A stretch of DNA of 63,757 nucleotides, counting the filler, from Licmophora abbreviata (lineage: Eukaryota): NCBI GenBank assembly GCA_900291995.1. It is 11 parts of 11 records of this genome, joined end to end, with 100 filler letters (N's around TTAATTAATTAA, not from the genome) between each part and the next. Parts side by side here need not be neighbours in the genome. Positions count along the whole stretch, not along the records: positions 32,828 to 36,233 come from OLMU01001490.1; 10 more parts are not named here. One strand, written 5' to 3'. This document shows, piece after piece, positions 26,945 through 36,746 of the stretch. Position 1 is the first letter of the stretch. Each line of letters starts with the position of its first letter. Under the pieces are notes generated by a model. It saw only the letters and a program-made list of their open reading frames with translations, searched no databases and had not been told where the DNA came from. Made by a program: the position numbers and the translations under genes.

Positions 26945-27540
26945 GGTAGGTTTGTATGATACAGTTCGTGCAACAAGGAAGGACTTGATGGTTCACCATG
27001 TCCAGCGTGTCCATGGAAGTGAGGCGCGACATCGCGGACAGAAGGCCTATCTCAGCTTGAAGATCACAGAACGTCGGGTTCGGATTGTGTACTGGTTCCC
27101 ATAAGTAATGTGATCGTGCAAAATTCTCTGCCTTCTTTTTGTGGTGTAAATAAACGCCGTCGTACCTCGAATTCACTCTTCCTGTTTGTATGAAAACTCT
27201 TATTTTGACGAGCTATTCCGATCCCGATTTCGACCACGTACTAGAATATGACACTGATGTGACATTCATAGAATGAATGTCTTTTTTTCTTCAACTTCAG
27301 CGCTCTTGAGGAATTCGAATGAATCGAAATTATCAGGTCATGAGCTATATCTGCTAATTGCGCGGGTGCGCGCGGAACGGTCATTTTTCTTCCCAACGCA
27401 TCTCAACTTTCATCAACTTCTTTTCCACCACCACGTCCCCACCCACCCCACACGCCCAACACTTGGATGGAGGTTTAGGTCGTCGTGCGGCGCTGCTTCT
27501 CCTTTCTCACCTCCTTTCATACATACTCTAACTGACTGAC

Positions 27541-30384
27541 ATGTTAAAGCCCCCTGGTTCCTCTTCAGCTCGCGCCGCTCAGCGTTCGAGCCGTCGGAAG
27601 ACGCAAGAGAATCCCGATGACGTAGTTCGTCAGTTGCAGCGTCTGCCTCCCAACAAAAAGTGCGCGGATTGTTCTTCTATGGGCCCCCCATATGTGAATT
27701 TGACGGTCGGCACATTCGTCTGTATGGCCTGCTCCGGCGTTCTACGTGAACTGAATCATCGCGTGAAAGGGATTGGTCATTCAAGCTTTACGGCGGAAGA
27801 GGTGGAACGCCTGAAGAAAAGTAACAATGACCAGATCAACGAGCAATATTTGGCACGGTACTCGTTTGCCAAGGAACGGCTCAAGGCGCCCGCAGATAAC
27901 AACGACTTGCAGCATCTGAAGATCTGGATTCGACGCAAGTACCATGACAAGGCATGGTACAGCATCAAGGGCAGCCAGGAAGCGGAAGCACAGCCGACAG
28001 TCGTTCAAGTCCCGGCAGCTAAGAAGGAACCGTCGCAGGACCTGTTGGGATTCGACAGTGCGCCGGCGGCTCCCGCCCCTGCGGCGAGCAATTGGGATGC
28101 CTTTGGAGGAAATGCGCCGGCTCCTGCCGTACCAGCAAGTCCAGCCTTTCAGGCAAACTTTGCCAGCTTTGATCAATCTGGCACTCCGAATCAGCAGCCG
28201 CAAGTTCCGAATGGACAAGGCTTTGCGAATTTCCCGTCTCCGCAGTCCCAGCCCCCGCAGCAGCCACCCCCGCCGCAGCAGCCCCCTCCGAAAACCGACT
28301 TTGCGAGCTTCCCTCCTCCCACCCAGCCACAGCAGCCGACAGGACAGCCTAGTGGCCCAGGCTTTGCGAATTTCCCGCAGCAACAGCAGCCTGTTCCGAA
28401 CCAAGCTTTCGCCACTTTCAATCAGCAACAATCACCGCCGCAGCCGCAGGGATTTGCGAACTTTGAACAGCAACATCCCGCACCGCAAGTGCCACCTCAA
28501 CAACAGCCGCCTCAGCAGTTCGCGGGTTTTCCGCAGGCGGGAGGAATCGCGCAGCAGCCAATCCCACCGCAACAAGTGAGTCACCAGCTACCACACTCGA
28601 CGAACCAGCCGCAGCAGCAGTTTCAGTCGCCGATGCCACAGAACAACAGCAATGTTCAACAGCTAGCGCCAATGCAAGCTGCACAGCAGCAGCAGGGCGG
28701 ACAGGCGCCGGTCTCGAACCAGGGTATGCCATCGCAGCCGCACCCACACGGGCAAGGATTCGCGAGTTTCCAGCAACCAACCGGGCCAAACGATCCGCCA
28801 ATGAGTACAATGCAACCGCCTCCACAGATGCTGGCCCAAGGAATGGCACAGCCCGGTTTCGTCAATTTCCAGCAACCGGGGCAGCCACCGCATGTATCCA
28901 CTCTACAGCCAGGGCAGCCCCAGCAACACCCAATTCCACAGGATACTCAAGGGGGATTTCAACAGGCTCCGACTCACCAGCCGATCCACCAGACGCAGAT
29001 GCAGCCACCGAGTACCACTCAGGCTGGCGCCATGGTTCAAGCTTCAGCGCCGGCTCTGTCGCAGGCATCGACCATGCAACAGGCGCCCCAACAGCAACCG
29101 CAGCCAAGTGTAATGGCTCAGCCTGCTCCGCCGCAGCCACATGCTCCTAGTCAGCGAATTCCGGTCGCCCCTGTCCAGGCTCCTCCTGCGAGTGACGCGT
29201 CTGCTGCGTCAGGAACCATGAGTGCATCAAGTGATCGCCAGAATGCGTTTGAGGCATTTTCTTCGCTATCGGTAGATTCCAAAACCAAAGAGAACGCAAA
29301 AGCAGTATTGTCGGTTCCTGACGAAGCGACAAAAACCATTGCGCCCACTCCTCCGAATAGACCAGTTTCCACTTTCAAAGAGGGACAAACCGTGGTCTAC
29401 AGCAACAGTAATGGCGACATGAGCATTGCGATGATCGTCAAAATCCATTTTGACGACGAACTGGAGCCTTTCTACACGATCAAGCTGTCAAGTGGAAAAG
29501 AGAAACAAACCGACGACGCTCATTTGAGTATTCCGAAAACATCTCCGATTCACGAAGAGATCGCGAATATGTTGCTCCTGTTTTCCCCGGAACAGTTGAT
29601 GACGGTTCAGCAGTTCGTCGCGGGCATTGCGAATTCACAGACCGCCAACTCAGGGACGCCGACTTCTTTCCATGCGCCTTCGAGCCAAGGGCAACCCACT
29701 GCGACTGTAGCTCCCGCTCCCCAGTCTTCCTCAACAAACGGTCACGAGGGCACCTTTGCGCTCTCGTCTGCCCCTCCGACCCCAGATCCCAAGTCCGGGA
29801 GTGCTCCGGTAGGCCGATGGTCAGGTATACCTAGTCCATCATCTCATCAGCAGAATGGAATGGGATTCGGGGGGACTCCGAGTCCCGCCGGGCCTTCAGC
29901 AGCAACCCAGGGACAGCAGAGAGGTGGCCCAGCACCATCATTGTATCAACATCAACCGTCTGGGCCCGCGTTGCAGGTTCAATCGGGAAGCGTCTCAGCC
30001 CCGCCAGTCTACCACCAGCAGTCTGGAGGCGCACCGATGCCGCCAACAAGCGCTCAGGCTCCCCAAAGAGTTGCCTCTATTGCGCCGAATGGCTACCAAC
30101 AACCACAGCAGCATCAAAATATTCAGCCTGCGAACACAATGCAGATTCAGCAGCAGCACGCTCAAGTACGACAGGGCTATCCTCAGCAACTGAATCATGC
30201 TACCGCTGCTCCCAATATTAACCGGATGTCACCACACACGGCTCCTGCTCCGCAGGCAAACCAGCAACAAGGAGTACAAGTGCAGTTCACACAACAAGGC
30301 TCAACGATGGGCCATCAGCAGATGGCTCCTACGGGTATGCCTGCATCGCCGAAAGGCAACCCGTTTGATATGTATGACGACTGA
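27541..30384 (+). CDS. ArfGAP (AGFG/AGD14-like) with Q/P-rich tail and terminal NPF
   Basis: CADC-x16-CMAC-x4-R zinc finger; repeated FANF/FASF; ends KGNPFDMYDD. Confidence 0.92.
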   Translation: MLKPPGSSSARAAQRSSRRKTQENPDDVVRQLQRLPPNKKCADCSSMGPPYVNLTVGTFVCMACSGVLRELNHRVKGIGHSSFTAEEVERLKKSNNDQINEQYLARYSFAKERLKAPADNNDLQHLKIWIRRKYHDKAWYSIKGSQEAEAQPTVVQVPAAKKEPSQDLLGFDSAPAAPAPAASNWDAFGGNAPAPAVPASPAFQANFASFDQSGTPNQQPQVPNGQGFANFPSPQSQPPQQPPPPQQPPPKTDFASFPPPTQPQQPTGQPSGPGFANFPQQQQPVPNQAFATFNQQQSPPQPQGFANFEQQHPAPQVPPQQQPPQQFAGFPQAGGIAQQPIPPQQVSHQLPHSTNQPQQQFQSPMPQNNSNVQQLAPMQAAQQQQGGQAPVSNQGMPSQPHPHGQGFASFQQPTGPNDPPMSTMQPPPQMLAQGMAQPGFVNFQQPGQPPHVSTLQPGQPQQHPIPQDTQGGFQQAPTHQPIHQTQMQPPSTTQAGAMVQASAPALSQASTMQQAPQQQPQPSVMAQPAPPQPHAPSQRIPVAPVQAPPASDASAASGTMSASSDRQNAFEAFSSLSVDSKTKENAKAVLSVPDEATKTIAPTPPNRPVSTFKEGQTVVYSNSNGDMSIAMIVKIHFDDELEPFYTIKLSSGKEKQTDDAHLSIPKTSPIHEEIANMLLLFSPEQLMTVQQFVAGIANSQTANSGTPTSFHAPSSQGQPTATVAPAPQSSSTNGHEGTFALSSAPPTPDPKSGSAPVGRWSGIPSPSSHQQNGMGFGGTPSPAGPSAATQGQQRGGPAPSLYQHQPSGPALQVQSGSVSAPPVYHQQSGGAPMPPTSAQAPQRVASIAPNGYQQPQQHQNIQPANTMQIQQQHAQVRQGYPQQLNHATAAPNINRMSPHTAPAPQANQQQGVQVQFTQQGSTMGHQQMAPTGMPASPKGNPFDMYDD

Positions 30385-30461: not shown

Positions 30462-32480
30462 TTACGACCACAAGACGTTGGACGCCAGTACAGTTGCCAG
30501 CATGCAGACTGACACAATACGACAAATCATTGATGCGTCCGATGTTGGCAGTGTCGTGGGTGGGGGGCTTGCAATTGCGTCCGATGTTGGCAAGGTCGTT
30601 GGTGGGGGCGTCGCTGTTGGGGGACTCACCGGTGATCCAGCATACGCAAATGTGTTGACATCTTCGATGAAGAACTCTCCTCCTTCGAAAAGAAGAGATC
30701 CTTCGCCTTCACGAGCGGGCCCCAACCAGACCTGATAGAACCCATCCCCAAAGGCACAGCACAGGCCGTTCCTTTCATTGTCTGTCATCGTGAATCGGTA
30801 GTTTATCGGTTCGGAGCCTGGCAGAAGCAAATCTATCTCCTCCTCGACCCGCGTGTTACTCTGGTCGTACATACCAGGGTACGTGATGGCAATGAGTATA
30901 GGGTCATTCTCCTCCAGCAGAGCTTCCAGTATCCATCCCGATTCTGCTGGACGCTGATCCAGCCCGATCACAAGGGTGATAAATGGTCGTGAACTAGTCG
31001 GTGCAGACGACGGCATGTGCGTAGCTGATGGAGCTGGACTTTGTGAGGGAAAGGCAGTCGGAAGCCCGCCAACAACAAAATCAAACTCTCGTGAAAAGCT
31101 TCTGCGACCGCCCCCTTGAACAGGTTCATCGATGAAGTAGACGCCTGTCGTCTCAGTACTATTTGCGCCTTCGTACACGGAAAGACTGCCACGAATATCC
31201 TGCGCTAAGTCCAGAACAATCAGCTTGTACGCACGGTTGTTGGGAACCTCCACTGTCTCTTTTACATCTTCGCGAAAGCCCAGATTCGAATACGAGAATA
31301 GGGGTGAGGAGTAGTACGATACGGCTTCCCCTTCCTCATTGGTAGATTCTAGTATCCACCCGAGGCCGGCAGCGGATATGTACCCATTCAGCTCGATGGA
31401 AAGGGAGATCAATTCTCCGGTAAAGTCTGGTTCCCGCGATGCCATTTCAGGACAATTAAAATCCTCCGGAGGGTTACTTGACAACCGACACACTGTTTCA
31501 TCAATCCAATCTCTCACATACGAAAGTCGTGCGTACAATCCAGGGAACTGGCCGTTCGCACAAGGCCGTATCCCGTACGAAACGACTCCTACCTGTACGT
31601 CGATACCATCTTGTACAGATATCAAAGGACCTCCTGTTCATGCACGACAGACGAGTGTCAGCGTTCAATCTTTGCCGCCTGAATACCAGTACCGAGGCCA
31701 AAACATAGTGTGTTGTCTGAACCAAGACCCACTTACCTGAATCCCCACGACATGCATCTTCGCCGTTGACAAAGTCGATCGCACAAAGACTGACCCCAAT
31801 CACTCTTTGCTCGAAGCCAGGAAACTCCTTACACCGCTCATTGGGAATGTAGTTAATAGTAGTTTCTTGCAGTACATCCGCTATCAAATCTATACTTGGA
31901 TCAGTTAACCCCCACCCCATGACGGTTAACTCATCTCCTTCTGTAGTCGGGAGGTTTGGATTCTGATTGAGACGCACCGCGGGTTGCGCGGACGAACCAT
32001 AGAGTCTGACGAGAGCAAAATCGAATTCATCGACATCCTCGCTCGCCTGACCGGGGTTTCGGTAGTAGAAAGGATGTGTTTGTCCCTCTCTTACAAGAAA
32101 GCTTTCATACGTCTCATCGAAATCCGAGCGATTATACCGACCGACCTGTACTTCAAAGAACTCACCGGCACAGTGAGCTGCAAACAAGACCACGTCGGGC
32201 GCCACCAGCTGAGACGCAGAGCGAGTATTCAGGGCACGAGAGGCAGAAGGTACAAGCCGATGAGTATCTTATGAGACAGGACAGCAGGAAATTAACGTCA
32301 GATACGCACTGTTCCCCCGCATTGATGGCCACTGAAGCCCCGAAGACTGGCCATGTAAGGGTACCGGCCAACCGGTGCGTTCTCGCCTCCAATGATGTAA
32401 CTCTCTCCGCCTTGCCTGAGTCCTTGACGACCCTGGCAGCCTACTAAACAAGTAGCAATACCAAAGGCTCGTAGCCGCAT
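30462..32480 (-). CDS. Secreted trypsin-like (S1) serine protease with accessory domains and GPI-like tail; introns 32209-32309, 31634-31736
   Basis: Signal peptide, IIGG, CGGT|LVAPD..AAHC, DFAL, DACRGDS|GGPL; TDNERNGLCCAFGDG module; duplicated PPPTTLPTSDA stalk; hydrophobic C-terminus. Confidence 0.92.
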
Positions 32481-32827: not shown

Positions 32828-34035
32828 GGAGGCCGGTTCCTTTCGGTATTCGCTGTCGTCGGCGTCGAGGGGGCGGAGGACATCGTCGATCGCATGCAAG
32901 AGGGTTCGTCAAACGTAATTCAAACGTTCGGCGTTTCCTTGGGCAAGACCGAGAAAGTCGTCCACGAAGATATCAAAATAGGCTGCTCGTCTGGCATTTC
33001 GTACTTGTAACGAGGGATCGCGGTCGGTTGGTATCTGCGTTGAGCCATGGAGGCCAGAAGCAGGCACGAATACGGCTTCGGTGGTGTCGGGATCTGGCTG
33101 AGTATCGGCGACCTCGTCGAGTCGGTGTGGGAGGACAGAACGGTTCTTGAGGAGGCGCTGGTTGGCAATATCGGCGATCGTCTCCGTGACAGCTGAAAAA
33201 ATGGGGGGGGGGGGGGGAGGTTCTTCCAGCCCATTGGTAGCGCCAGCGGAAAGGCTAGGAGGGGATCGGATTGGTCATCGGCTGGGTAGATCATGGCAAG
33301 CTTAGGCACATCTTCTAGCCGGACCCAGACGCGATAGAATCCATCCGAGAGGTCTACCTTGAGCATCTTGACCGGGCCGAAGCGGGGGTCAGCTAGAACG
33401 ATGTGTCGAAGGTATCTCTCCAGTGCTCGACCGAACTGCATGGCCTCCATTGGAGCTATAGGTAGGGTCTCGTCATTCTGCCCGTGGAAACTGAAGTCGC
33501 AAATCACGCGTGGTCGTCTTCCATGTTGGGGCACAACGCCAAATGGCGCGATGCGCAATCCTTTAATGGTGCGGGCGAGGCTATAAGGAAGGAGTAGCCA
33601 GAACCCTTTCTGGATGAAGTCGATCATCTCTTCGTGTAGGAACGGTAGGTGTTCGTACAAGGATCGATGGGGCCCTCGGCCGACTGCGGCGCGTACGCGG
33701 GAGTGGGACCATGGAGGGGTGGAGTATACCACCGGCGCACCTCGTCGGCTGTATTGGCGGAGGAGGCGGTGCGCGGGATGGGTTTTAATGTTTTGGAGAT
33801 TGGTGAAGTCACCGCGGCCACGACGGAGGCGTATCAGTGTAGGCAAACCGTGGGTTTTAAATAGAGTTACGTCACGCTTCACTAACTCACCAAGTGTCTC
33901 CGATGAGGACGGCTTCACTCTCTTTGTCTGAGAGATCAGCAGGTCCGGGGAAATTGCTCGCTTCTTGGTGTAGGCAGTGGCAGGTGACAATGGCTCTAGA
34001 CTGGGGCCCATGCGGCCCGAGTCCTTGCCGATCAC
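32828..34035 (-). pseudogene. Reverse transcriptase ORF2, frameshifted at C15 tract (33203-33217), premature TGA (32909-32911), 3'-truncated by gap
   Basis: IAPFGVVPQ..RPRVICDFS, KVDLSDGFYRV, LPMGWKN; after the shift IFSAVTETIADIAN..YFDIFVDDFLG..YV*RTLLHAIDDVLRP. Confidence 0.85.
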
Positions 34036-36216
34036 CTATTCGTGCCAGTGCTGCTGGCACCAAGTCAGAAGAGCGTTGTCGTCGTCTTCGCTGCCGACGA
34101 TATGATCGCTGTTGTTTCCGCACTGCTCGTTGCACATCCCTTTCACGTGCCACGCTAGGCACCGAGTCTGTCCATCGGATCGTTTCGGAATCGTGACGCG
34201 TTCTGTCGTGAGTCTCTGGCGGAGGTCTCTGACCTTGATTGCAATGGACTTGTAAGGCTGGAACATGCTCTTCCAACCCAGATTATTCACACGAATGTTC
34301 GGCTCCGAATCGGGGGCACCAGCACTTCGAGAAGCGGGGGCGCTGGTGGCTGGAGGTGGAACGGCGGGTGTCGGAGGAGGGTCCGAGGCCGGAATGAAAC
34401 CGGGAGGGAACGTCGGGAGCCAGTACTCATTGAATCGAATCTTCCGGAAGATTTCGCCGTACGCTGGGGCTGGGATGATGGCCGGGGAGCGCAACTGCTC
34501 GTCGACCCACACACTGAAACGCAGCTGCATCCATCGAATAAAGTAAGCGGGAGCATGGGTGGTCGGAACGCCCGGGGGCATCGTCATCGTCTCCATCACA
34601 TGTTCGTTCGCACTATACGACACCAAGAGTTGCGTCATCGCTCGGGTGTGGCTGTGAGCCGCGCCAAAAGCAGTGGAGGACGCCACCAGCATGTTCTGGA
34701 GAGTGTATCGGACCTGAGACCAGGTCACGGGCAAGTCGGTCTTGTCGGCGGCAAGGAGGGCTTGTGCGTCCTGCAGGGACGGGTTAGCGTCGTGCTCGGA
34801 CACCATGGAGTGGGTCTCCACTAGGTGCCGGAGGACTTCCTGAGATCGGGGTGTACGGTAGGTAAAATGGAAATGATGGAGGCCGGTCTCCAGAACATTC
34901 TCGTCTTCCATGGCCCATGAAGCACTAGCGACTTTCTTTGCCATACTGGGAGTCACGATCACCTTGTGGCCGACGTTGAGGAGCTCCGACGATTCGTCCA
35001 TGTACTGTTGGATCACGACTCGTTCTTGGTTCTTGGGGGAGTTGGCGATCGCATCGTACAGGGGTGGCAGATTGGCGCTGGAGGCGCTCTGGCACAATCG
35101 CAGGATGCTCTGGAGGCGGGGCCCGTAGAACTGATCCGGAGTCTTGGTTTGGGTCTGGAGCCGGGCTAAACGCGCGTCGTCTTGACCTTTCGTCATTGCA
35201 GTCACCAAGTGTCGTCCGATCTGCCCGGCTACCTCGCGCATGCCTTGAGGCGGCTGGAGGGCTAGAGCCAAACCTGGAAGGTCCTTCATCAGGAGCTCCC
35301 ATCGATGGTGCAGGAGTACTTGATCTGCCAGTGGGACTGTAGGCATGGGTACTTCGAGGATGGAGGCGGCGTCGATCGCATTTCGCGTGAGGGCCACACG
35401 CAGCCAGGTGATTAGGGGCAAACAGGCATTCCGAGTCCCGTCAGCTGTCACTGCATCGACCAGACGCGTGAACGCCTCGGCAGGAGTCAAATCCTCTTCG
35501 AGGAACAGACTCACATATCGCGGAGGGACGTACATCGAACGTCTCGTTCGTACGACTTCGGTGCCGGCATCATTGTTCCCAAAAGGTCCGAGGAGCATGG
35601 GCATCGGCTGTGCAGCCATCTGCTGGATCGCTTGATCGACAGTTGGCACGCGGACGAGAGCTCCGGCTTGGTGGAAGTAGTCTTGGGGCCATTGGATGGT
35701 GACGGCCTGTTGATGTACCACATTTCCTTTCGTGGCGAAACCTTGGTCGTCCCACGGAGTCGCGGGAAGGCCGAGTCGGGCCGGGAAACGATACTGACGA
35801 TGGAACAGGATCACTTTACCAGGGTCCTGAGCTGGATCAGCAAGAGGGTCGCGGCACAGGAGGAGGAAAGCCATTGGCACATCGGCTGCCGCCGAGGTAT
35901 ACACTTGGTTCGCTAGGGCGGCGGGCTGAGTGGCAGCTGCGTTCACATTGTCGACTTGGAAAGTCTGCATAATCTGGTCGTACTGCCCCCTGAAGGGATC
36001 GTTCTGAACTGCGTCGTAGTACTCTCGGTAGTTCGTGAGACCCCCCATGGGGTTGGGTCCGACGGCAGCGACGGGCTGTGGGGCCTGGACAGGCGGAACA
36101 GCGTGTGGCTGGGGTTGGAAAGGAGGCACGTTCTGCGCGGGCGGAATCTGCGGCTGCTGCTGTGCAGGAGCGGCGGGTGGCCCAGCAGGAGGTGCTGGTT
36201 GGGCTTGACCGTTCAT
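34036..36216 (-). CDS. Retroelement ORF1 (gag-like), 726 aa, C-terminal CCCH finger
   Basis: Uninterrupted ORF; Pro/Gln/Ala N-terminus; ends CLAWHVKGMCNEQCGNNSDH (C-x8-C-x3-C-x5-H). Confidence 0.8.
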   Translation of the reverse strand: MNGQAQPAPPAGPPAAPAQQQPQIPPAQNVPPFQPQPHAVPPVQAPQPVAAVGPNPMGGLTNYREYYDAVQNDPFRGQYDQIMQTFQVDNVNAAATQPAALANQVYTSAAADVPMAFLLLCRDPLADPAQDPGKVILFHRQYRFPARLGLPATPWDDQGFATKGNVVHQQAVTIQWPQDYFHQAGALVRVPTVDQAIQQMAAQPMPMLLGPFGNNDAGTEVVRTRRSMYVPPRYVSLFLEEDLTPAEAFTRLVDAVTADGTRNACLPLITWLRVALTRNAIDAASILEVPMPTVPLADQVLLHHRWELLMKDLPGLALALQPPQGMREVAGQIGRHLVTAMTKGQDDARLARLQTQTKTPDQFYGPRLQSILRLCQSASSANLPPLYDAIANSPKNQERVVIQQYMDESSELLNVGHKVIVTPSMAKKVASASWAMEDENVLETGLHHFHFTYRTPRSQEVLRHLVETHSMVSEHDANPSLQDAQALLAADKTDLPVTWSQVRYTLQNMLVASSTAFGAAHSHTRAMTQLLVSYSANEHVMETMTMPPGVPTTHAPAYFIRWMQLRFSVWVDEQLRSPAIIPAPAYGEIFRKIRFNEYWLPTFPPGFIPASDPPPTPAVPPPATSAPASRSAGAPDSEPNIRVNNLGWKSMFQPYKSIAIKVRDLRQRLTTERVTIPKRSDGQTRCLAWHVKGMCNEQCGNNSDHIVGSEDDDNALLTWCQQHWHE

Positions 36217-36746
36217 GGTCGAGGCATTAAAAGNNNNNNNNNNNNNNNNNNNNNNNNNNNNNNNNNNNNNNNNNNNNTTAATTAATTAANNNNNNNNNNN
36301 NNNNNNNNNNNNNNNNNNNNNNNNNNNNNNNNNTGGAGTTTCCCGCCAAAGTAAGTCACATCAACCATCCGCGCCGGCAATTTGATGTGTTGCGTTGAAA
36401 AATAGTTCCGGGTCCTCCAAAATTGCGGGAAAATAACCAACATTATCAGAAACGTAGCTCTATTATAAACTTCAACGGAAACGTTTCCGTTGACGCATTG
36501 GATCGTGATCTTCTGGTTGTTCCCGCAACCCGCCATTTGACACTGCAGCACTGATGATTCCTGGTCCTGGAACATTTGTTTGCATGCCATGCCCCTTAGA
36601 ACGCCATTCCTGATCCCCTCTTGCCTTTATTATCTGAATTCTGCAGTTGAACTGCGAGAGAAAAGCATTGGTTGATCAGAAACTGTAGTGCCGCGAGAAT
36701 AGATTTCGAAATTTCGACTTGACTAGAATTTCGCCGTAAGCTCATC

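Follow-up and report, generated by a model that had tools for sequence, protein, structure and literature searches.

A Conserved In-Frame Stop Codon Followed by a Stem-Loop as a Candidate Readthrough Signal in Ngaro-like Retrotransposons of Licmophora abbreviata

The stretch of DNA analyzed here (the window, 63,757 nucleotides from the Licmophora abbreviata assembly GCA_900291995.1) contains, among eukaryotic genes of the ArfGAP and trypsin-like types, a 3.4 kb contig lying between assembly gaps (32828-36233, OLMU01001490.1). This contig is fully occupied by a minus-strand element, a 3′-truncated Ngaro-like tyrosine-recombinase (YR) retrotransposon, in which gag is followed by one UAG and then by an in-frame pol. 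The gag-like open reading frame (ORF1; 34036..36216, minus strand, ATG at 36216, 726 amino acids) ends in a Cys/His knuckle (C-x-x-W/Y-H...C...C...H), and its last residues, QHWHE, directly precede the TAG at 34038-34036. A Pfam search of ORF1 matched no family and the label gag is based on position and synteny only; the C-terminus is alignable across all 20 junction peptides aligned. The minus-strand reading reported in the initial annotation, from CAC GAA TAG GTG through to AGT CTA GAG CC, was confirmed on re-reading, as was the open frame leading from the UAG into the reverse transcriptase (RT) motifs: translation of the minus strand from 36186 to 32920 contains this TAG as the sole stop between the two. 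The pol ORF (32828..34035, minus strand), which carries FVDD at 32968-32957 in the continuing frame, is cut by the contig gap at 32828; this gap removes the 3′ half of the element, leaving RNase H and YR outside the window. Furthermore, the pol frame of this copy is broken by an expanded C run (approximately 33217-33203, minus strand) relative to the sister copy C5670, which is 83% identical, and the run points to faulty assembly or to a copy that has been inactivated. The RVT_1 profile matches the RT piece of the window with an E-value of 0.17, versus 3.6e-5 for the sister copy.

The layout of the complete element is apparent from four full-length relatives, C6333 and C6348 from the same genome and L051 and L052 from metagenomes, each of which carries gag, a pol of 805-873 codons and an ORF3 of 388-395 codons that overlaps the pol end and contains the motifs LLRPGE, RSLR and GRW..MLRY. 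The assignment of ORF3 as a YR draws on its Atlas cluster, in which PF00589 is found in 20% of the members (score 0.98); hmmscan of ORF3 gave no Pfam match, and the solved structures searched with the YR yielded none matching. In all three full Pol proteins RVT_1 is matched weakly, below its curated cut-off (E 1.8e-5 to 4.9e-4), with a YxDD-type motif present, and a region without Pfam match is presumably RNase H, as assigned from its motifs. Inspection of four Pol tails (136-168 residues) revealed no adenine methyltransferase motifs and no methyltransferase Pfam match; the absence of this domain sets Ngaro apart from DIRS1/PAT. The YRs of three lineages (L040:4156-5331, L051 and L052) show R-S-L-R in place of the usual His-X-X-Arg, while the final Arg and Tyr are present in all three. 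Direct repeats of 261 nt are found at both ends of L054, of 127 nt in L052 and of 55 nt on the 3′ side of the YR in L060, and none in the other five of the eight loci; this look-up is limited by contigs that stop at the element ends. Since the split direct repeats (A1-ORFs-B1-A2-B2) are visible only in part and the YR has Arg where the Cafeteria Ngaros have His, the element is filed as Ngaro-like, a classification that follows from its layout of gag-like ORF1, RT/RNase H ORF2 and YR ORF3 (PMC8547959, PMC3783388, PMC4157794).

With regard to distribution, scoring of 8,000 candidates yielded 1,463 Pol relatives (E 0.001 or better). Thalassiosira oceanica and a Pseudo-nitzschia-labelled model are sources of related Pol proteins, and the Atlas clusters nearest to the YR are commonest in Bacillariophyta, as far as the few members with a taxon record indicate; this points to a diatom or a related alga as the probable host. 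None of 96 candidate viral contigs is a relative. Among 118 candidates from prokaryote genomes there is one, the 2.5-kb contig L057 (NZ_JANXSQ010000123.1) of a bacterial metagenome-assembled genome (MAG), which carries a gag-UGA-pol junction and is probably eukaryotic carry-over.

The position of the stop and the gag-pol frame are conserved well beyond the window copy. Searches of the genome returned 22 matches with an RT query and 20 with a Gag C-terminus query. Of the 15 distinct contigs carrying both, 13 have a single TAG between gag and RT with the frame preserved; the two exceptions, C6118 and C6392, have the same TAG but show a 1-nt indel within a neighboring homopolymer. Three further contigs display gag-TAG-G without RT, bringing the own-genome junctions to 18, and in all of them the UAG (34036..34038, minus strand, in the window) is followed by G at +4. 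The foreign elements are likewise in frame across one stop in 5/5 cases, with TGA in four and TAA in one. This set consists of the MAG-contig element and four distinct elements from six junction-bearing loci out of eight metagenome loci (L052-L054 counted as one element; L055 is truncated and L056 degenerate, and neither has the junction). In an RT tree of this family only, which omits the three junctions devoid of RT, the own-genome copies fall into three clades on long branches (0.67, 0.88 and 0.39), and the tree does not resolve them as a single group separate from the UGA/UAA elements. Hence 23 junctions from eight lineages share the stop position, while the codon itself is UAG, UGA or UAA. 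A genome-wide search with the junction pattern gave 23 matches, seven of which are known junctions, versus 11 in the control.

Because the identity of the codon switches while its position is kept, the stop does not behave as a lesion. A CAG>TAG lesion in a fused ORF and a chance frame match had both been listed in the initial annotation as alternatives. The former finds some echo in the other lesion of the window copy, namely the C-run frameshift in RT, and in a few database fragments with a sense residue at the site; nevertheless, with the same position occupied by three different stop codons and the frame retained across genome copies and foreign elements, both are rejected and their probability is regarded as negligible. 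The database fragments emerged from a junction-peptide search over 1.84 billion representatives, which returned 870 matches. Among the best 150 of these 870, 19 proteins match the Gag C-terminus, 13 of them Gag-only and six also with RT; the C-terminus of 11 of the 13 Gag-only homologs lies no more than 3 residues from the stop site, and three of the six Gag+RT proteins, short fragments reaching from the knuckle to RT, carry a W, a Q or an L near the position of the stop. The latter may be decayed copies or the result of gene calling under another code. No fused Gag-Pol of 1,272-3,630 residues occurs among 7,998 candidate proteins, which is weak evidence, and the Gag C-terminus was found in 0/120 Pol homologs.

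A variant genetic code, in which the host or hosts would read the stop as sense and gag-pol would be one ORF, agrees with the UAG shared by all 18 own-genome junctions. However, a host ORF of 950 codons contains 149 Gln codons and no internal TAG, which indicates that this host reads UAG as a stop; gag has no internal TAG either, with 57 Gln codons, the pol ORFs themselves end in TAG in 2/5 complete cases, and two other stops serve in the foreign elements. This explanation is consequently rejected as largely refuted, and is very improbable.

The stop is followed by a spacer of 6 nt (34030..34035) and by a stem-loop (33992..34029, minus strand), composed of a GGC/GCC lower stem, an AA/AGA internal loop, an upper stem and a GCAUG loop, as delineated by folding and covariation. 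The GG that opens the stem is found at +7/+8 in 22/23 junctions. The hairpin placed by the initial annotation 12 nt after the stop, with its GGC/GCC extension, is the same as the minimum free energy (MFE) structure: the GACU of the upper stem begins 12 nt after the stop, and the extension starts at +7. For the first 51 nt after the stop (+1..+51), this structure reaches -23.6 kcal/mol (z -3.0), with 1/200 shuffles as stable; with more flanking sequence the value becomes z -1.8, with 8/200 shuffles as stable. When a 50-nt window is moved over 28 offsets (25 shuffles per window; C7029, with 30 nt only, omitted), the lowest mean z (-3.0) is observed at +7..+56, where z is -1.5 or lower in 19/22 junctions and which ranks first in nine of them.

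The pairing is also preserved by compensatory changes. In the gapless alignment of clades A and B, the 10 named pairs are kept in 60/60 cells (6 distinct rows) and four of them are changed on both sides, whereas slid controls are 30-40% paired; RNAalifold recovers the same stem. In clade C together with two foreign elements, 94.4% of 124 cells are paired and 6/11 pairs are changed on both sides, compared with 49-60% pairing in slid controls and 2/500 shuffles as high. For both sets the rows are related and the structures are derived from the same sequences. As separate observations on this region, clade B shows a second stable hairpin from +53 to +75 after the stop (e.g., L005:281-303; z -3 to -5), which could belong to the signal. 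In clade C (e.g., L040:2075-2130) a G-rich 5′ arm can pair with either a near C-rich arm or a farther GCCCCC run, so that two registers or a switch are possible, and in seven clade C copies an AUG at +2 opens a short out-of-frame ORF.

Beyond the stop, a stop-free linker of 48 codons (33891..34035, minus strand), rich in P/S/T and with basic clusters (KKR at 33966-33958), runs to a predicted splice donor. The linker appears to be translated onward from the stop. Counted in 15 elements up to the first AUG or the donor (2,452 nt), the region after the stop contains no further in-frame stop, versus 20 and 42 in the other frames, a count that partly reflects the selection of intact elements; linker lengths differ by multiples of 3. 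A basic cluster is present in frame in 17/19 linkers (C6118 omitted), in 0/19 for each of the other frames and in 0/20 Gag ends, and may act as a nuclear localization signal. Nine of the 20 elements have no in-frame AUG ahead of the donor, and three clade B copies do not reach one until about 150 codons in, beyond the conserved N-terminal motifs of RT. The AUG inside the hairpin loop (34009..34011), at which the initial annotation had envisaged an alternative start at 34011, is confined to the two copies of the window's own clade, A, and is thus discarded as a general start.

These features bear directly on termination-reinitiation, according to which ribosomes would stop at the UAG and, aided by the stem, restart at a downstream AUG or near-cognate codon, so that Pol and YR would be made without Gag. 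In its favor, 11/20 elements offer an in-frame AUG before the donor, one position in clade C is always AUG or GUG, all 15 linkers examined contain near-cognate codons, and the element has no protease to cleave a fusion. AUG-independent initiation is a feature of LINE-1 ORF2. Moreover, reinitiation in SART1 requires RNA structure downstream of the ORF1 stop (PMC10275272). This route leaves two regularities unexplained: the first start always follows the stop at a multiple of 3 nt, with no further stop in between, and in all six clade C copies having an AUG a conserved basic cluster precedes it. In addition, AUG positions vary by clade, nine elements have none, and in the pol frame no start codon overlaps the stop. 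Reinitiation is consequently considered unlikely.

The 3′ limit of the linker is a predicted 5′ splice site, G|GTGAGT (33885..33890, minus strand, GT at 33890-33889, phase 1), identified by sequence comparison, with its acceptor outside the window. A donor-like GT(A/G)(A/C)G(T/A) is found 146-389 nt past the stop in 20/20 elements long enough, and in phase 1 in 19 of these; the distances keep the frame in all except one copy with an extra G, which is also the sole phase exception. A donor-compatible tripeptide is present in 64/77 homologous Pol proteins versus 67/924 control windows. On the other side, an acceptor CAG in the phase of the YR occupies one position in 16/16 YR loci covering it, five YR matches ending before the acceptor being excluded, and in 15/16 of these loci the first YR-frame AUG comes at least 71 codons after the acceptor. 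This CAG also encodes a Gln of Pol, but Pol uses CAA and CAG about equally, and the Pro codon before the acceptor CAG varies at its third base. In the four full elements, the predicted introns would measure 1,928, 1,928, 2,003 and 2,021 nt, each shifting the frame from pol to YR. In the nine elements whose linker lacks an in-frame AUG, the only AUG start on the spliced YR message would be that of gag. The conserved linker donor thus probably makes the recombinase dependent on passage of the stop as well. One RNA run of low share, compared with the sister C6333, gave 21 divergent contigs and no spliced joints, and is uninformative either way.

Splicing also enters a further explanation, a separate pol mRNA, for which two origins may be envisaged. 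In the first, the UAG|G itself would serve as a 3′ splice site in this genome: the UAG-G of all 18 own-genome junctions matches YAG|G, the consensus acceptor, and the element apparently already uses splicing. However, the UGA or UAA found at the same position in the five foreign elements is unusable as an acceptor; of the 18 own junctions, nine have a competing AG in the 20 nt upstream and two a branch-like motif. In the second, a promoter would lie inside gag, as was found in the junction of Tca2 (PMC2194720). By either origin, a pol-only mRNA would need an AUG, which those nine elements lack before the donor, whereas conservation of the gag-pol frame would be unnecessary. This explanation is therefore judged quite unlikely.

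Taking into account the conservation of stop, frame and pairing with compensatory changes, the Gag-RT readthrough put forward as a candidate in the initial annotation is supported by comparison, and it is likely that structure-stimulated readthrough makes Gag-RT/RNase H and, on spliced RNA, Gag-recombinase. At the UAG, most ribosomes would terminate and release Gag. The stem, 6 nt downstream and near the mRNA entry channel, would favor a near-cognate tRNA in a minority of ribosomes, which would then cross the basic, P/S/T-rich linker into RT/RNase H and produce a fusion of about 1,500 residues in the full-length C6333. On RNA spliced from the linker donor to the acceptor at the start of ORF3, with removal of an intron of 1.9-2.0 kb, the same readthrough would give a Gag-YR of about 1,100 residues. 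A single leaky stop would in this manner set the ratio of both enzymes to Gag.

Several observations weigh against readthrough as formulated here. The G at +4 is present in only 1/5 foreign elements. The hairpin is not above shuffles in three of these five (z -0.1, -0.4 and -0.1), and the stem is weak there; since these three lack a folding excess, conservation of the stem is to be regarded as solid within this genome but incomplete across its relatives. The covariation counts sequences and not events, the comparison of clade A with clade B being essentially a single one. In clade C, the AUG at one linker position in 8/10 covering copies, with GUG in the other two, fits an internal start. As to the predicted splicing, the CAG taken as acceptor also codes for the Gln in a conserved motif of Pol, and the pattern used to detect donors was broadened once the clade B sites were known. 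Furthermore, YR retrotransposons have no protease (PMC3783388), so that the fusions would have to function uncleaved. Finally, Tca2, with the same anatomy of in-frame stop and 3′ structure, directed no readthrough in a yeast reporter (PMC2194720); this is the main warning, by analogy, that such anatomy is no proof of simple readthrough.

The element was compared with its nearest known counterparts. Like Ngaro1-4 of Cafeteria burkhardae (PMC8547959) and fungal Ngaro (PMC3783388), it has a gag-like ORF1, an RT/RNase H ORF2 and a YR ORF3 that overlaps the ORF2 end in another frame, and it shares with Ngaro a length of about 5.5-6 kb and a Pol tail without methyltransferase motif. In contrast to the His-X-X-Arg of the Cafeteria Ngaros, the YR has R-S-L-R. 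Further differences, on which these accounts of Ngaro are silent, are the single stop that separates gag from pol within one frame, the conserved stem after it, and splice-site sequences that would join the linker to ORF3. The gammaretrovirus MuLV (Type III UAG-G, PMC3159437) likewise has a UAG-G between gag and pol in a single frame, with a structure shortly 3′ of it. MuLV differs in its 8-nt spacer and pseudoknot, whereas here a 6-nt spacer (22/23) and a stem-loop with internal loop are supported; the stop varies across the family (UAG-G in 0/5 foreign elements), and neither protease nor integrase is present. The readthrough signals of alphaviruses, tobraviruses, furoviruses and benyviruses (PMC3159437) resemble the junction in their 3′ stem after a short spacer, compensatory changes and occasional stop switch, and differ in their spacers of 7-12 nt, often long loops, and UGA-C or UAG-CAA contexts, as well as in belonging to RNA viruses. 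Retrotransposon ORFs split by an in-frame stop are also found in Tca2 of Candida albicans, at gag/pol as in MuLV and with a 3′ structure, and in SIRE1 of soybean, at pol/env (PMC2194720). These are, however, long terminal repeat (LTR) elements, and the Tca2 junction alone directed no readthrough in S. cerevisiae.

Some relatives depart from this layout. Seven Pol relatives (P0067, P0072, P0086, P0090, P0095, P0107 and P0166) share a non-Gag domain within an N-terminal extension of 300-450 residues, which implies that in some subfamilies the linker is far longer or expression takes a different path. Two proteins, P0238 and P0255, contain 4-5 tandem Gag C-terminal Cys/His knuckles and no RT, and are possibly domesticated or amplified Gag ends. 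In the window itself, an intron-split trypsin-like gene (30462-32268, minus strand) adjoins the contig of the element, and an ArfGAP gene (27532-30384) and a tRNA-Thr (130-202) are also present.

No description of readthrough, stop-codon or splicing expression of DIRS, Ngaro or YR retrotransposons was found, in a search that did not cover the main Ngaro reviews, primary papers or Repbase entries; term look-ups in PMC3783388, PMC3266345, PMC7192593, PMC5633606, PMC8547959, PMC12440569 and PMC5009743 gave no such mention. Judged from sequence comparison, the junction is a real, conserved recoding-like signal, to which the present analysis adds stop-codon switching, a fixed 6-nt spacer, stem covariation and AUG-free linkers. 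How ORF2 and the overlapping ORF3 of YR retrotransposons are expressed is not addressed in the literature examined, and the junction offers a precise, testable answer for a large family. Moreover, its variants, which use all three stop codons and include many compensatory changes, form a naturally occurring set of candidate readthrough signals in algae, a group in which recoding has received little attention. Gene callers are predicted to split such elements wrongly into two genes, a gag and a pol that lacks its N-terminus. More tentatively, it is plausible, though somewhat less likely than not, that a large YR family of diatoms and related algae makes all its enzymes through one structure-stimulated leaky stop, with both fusions uncleaved, that the signal, a 6-nt spacer and a GG-initiated stem with internal loop, serves any of the three stops, and that clades without close relationship came to use UAG-G within a single host. 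If so, this shared choice would reflect properties of the tRNAs or release factors of the host.

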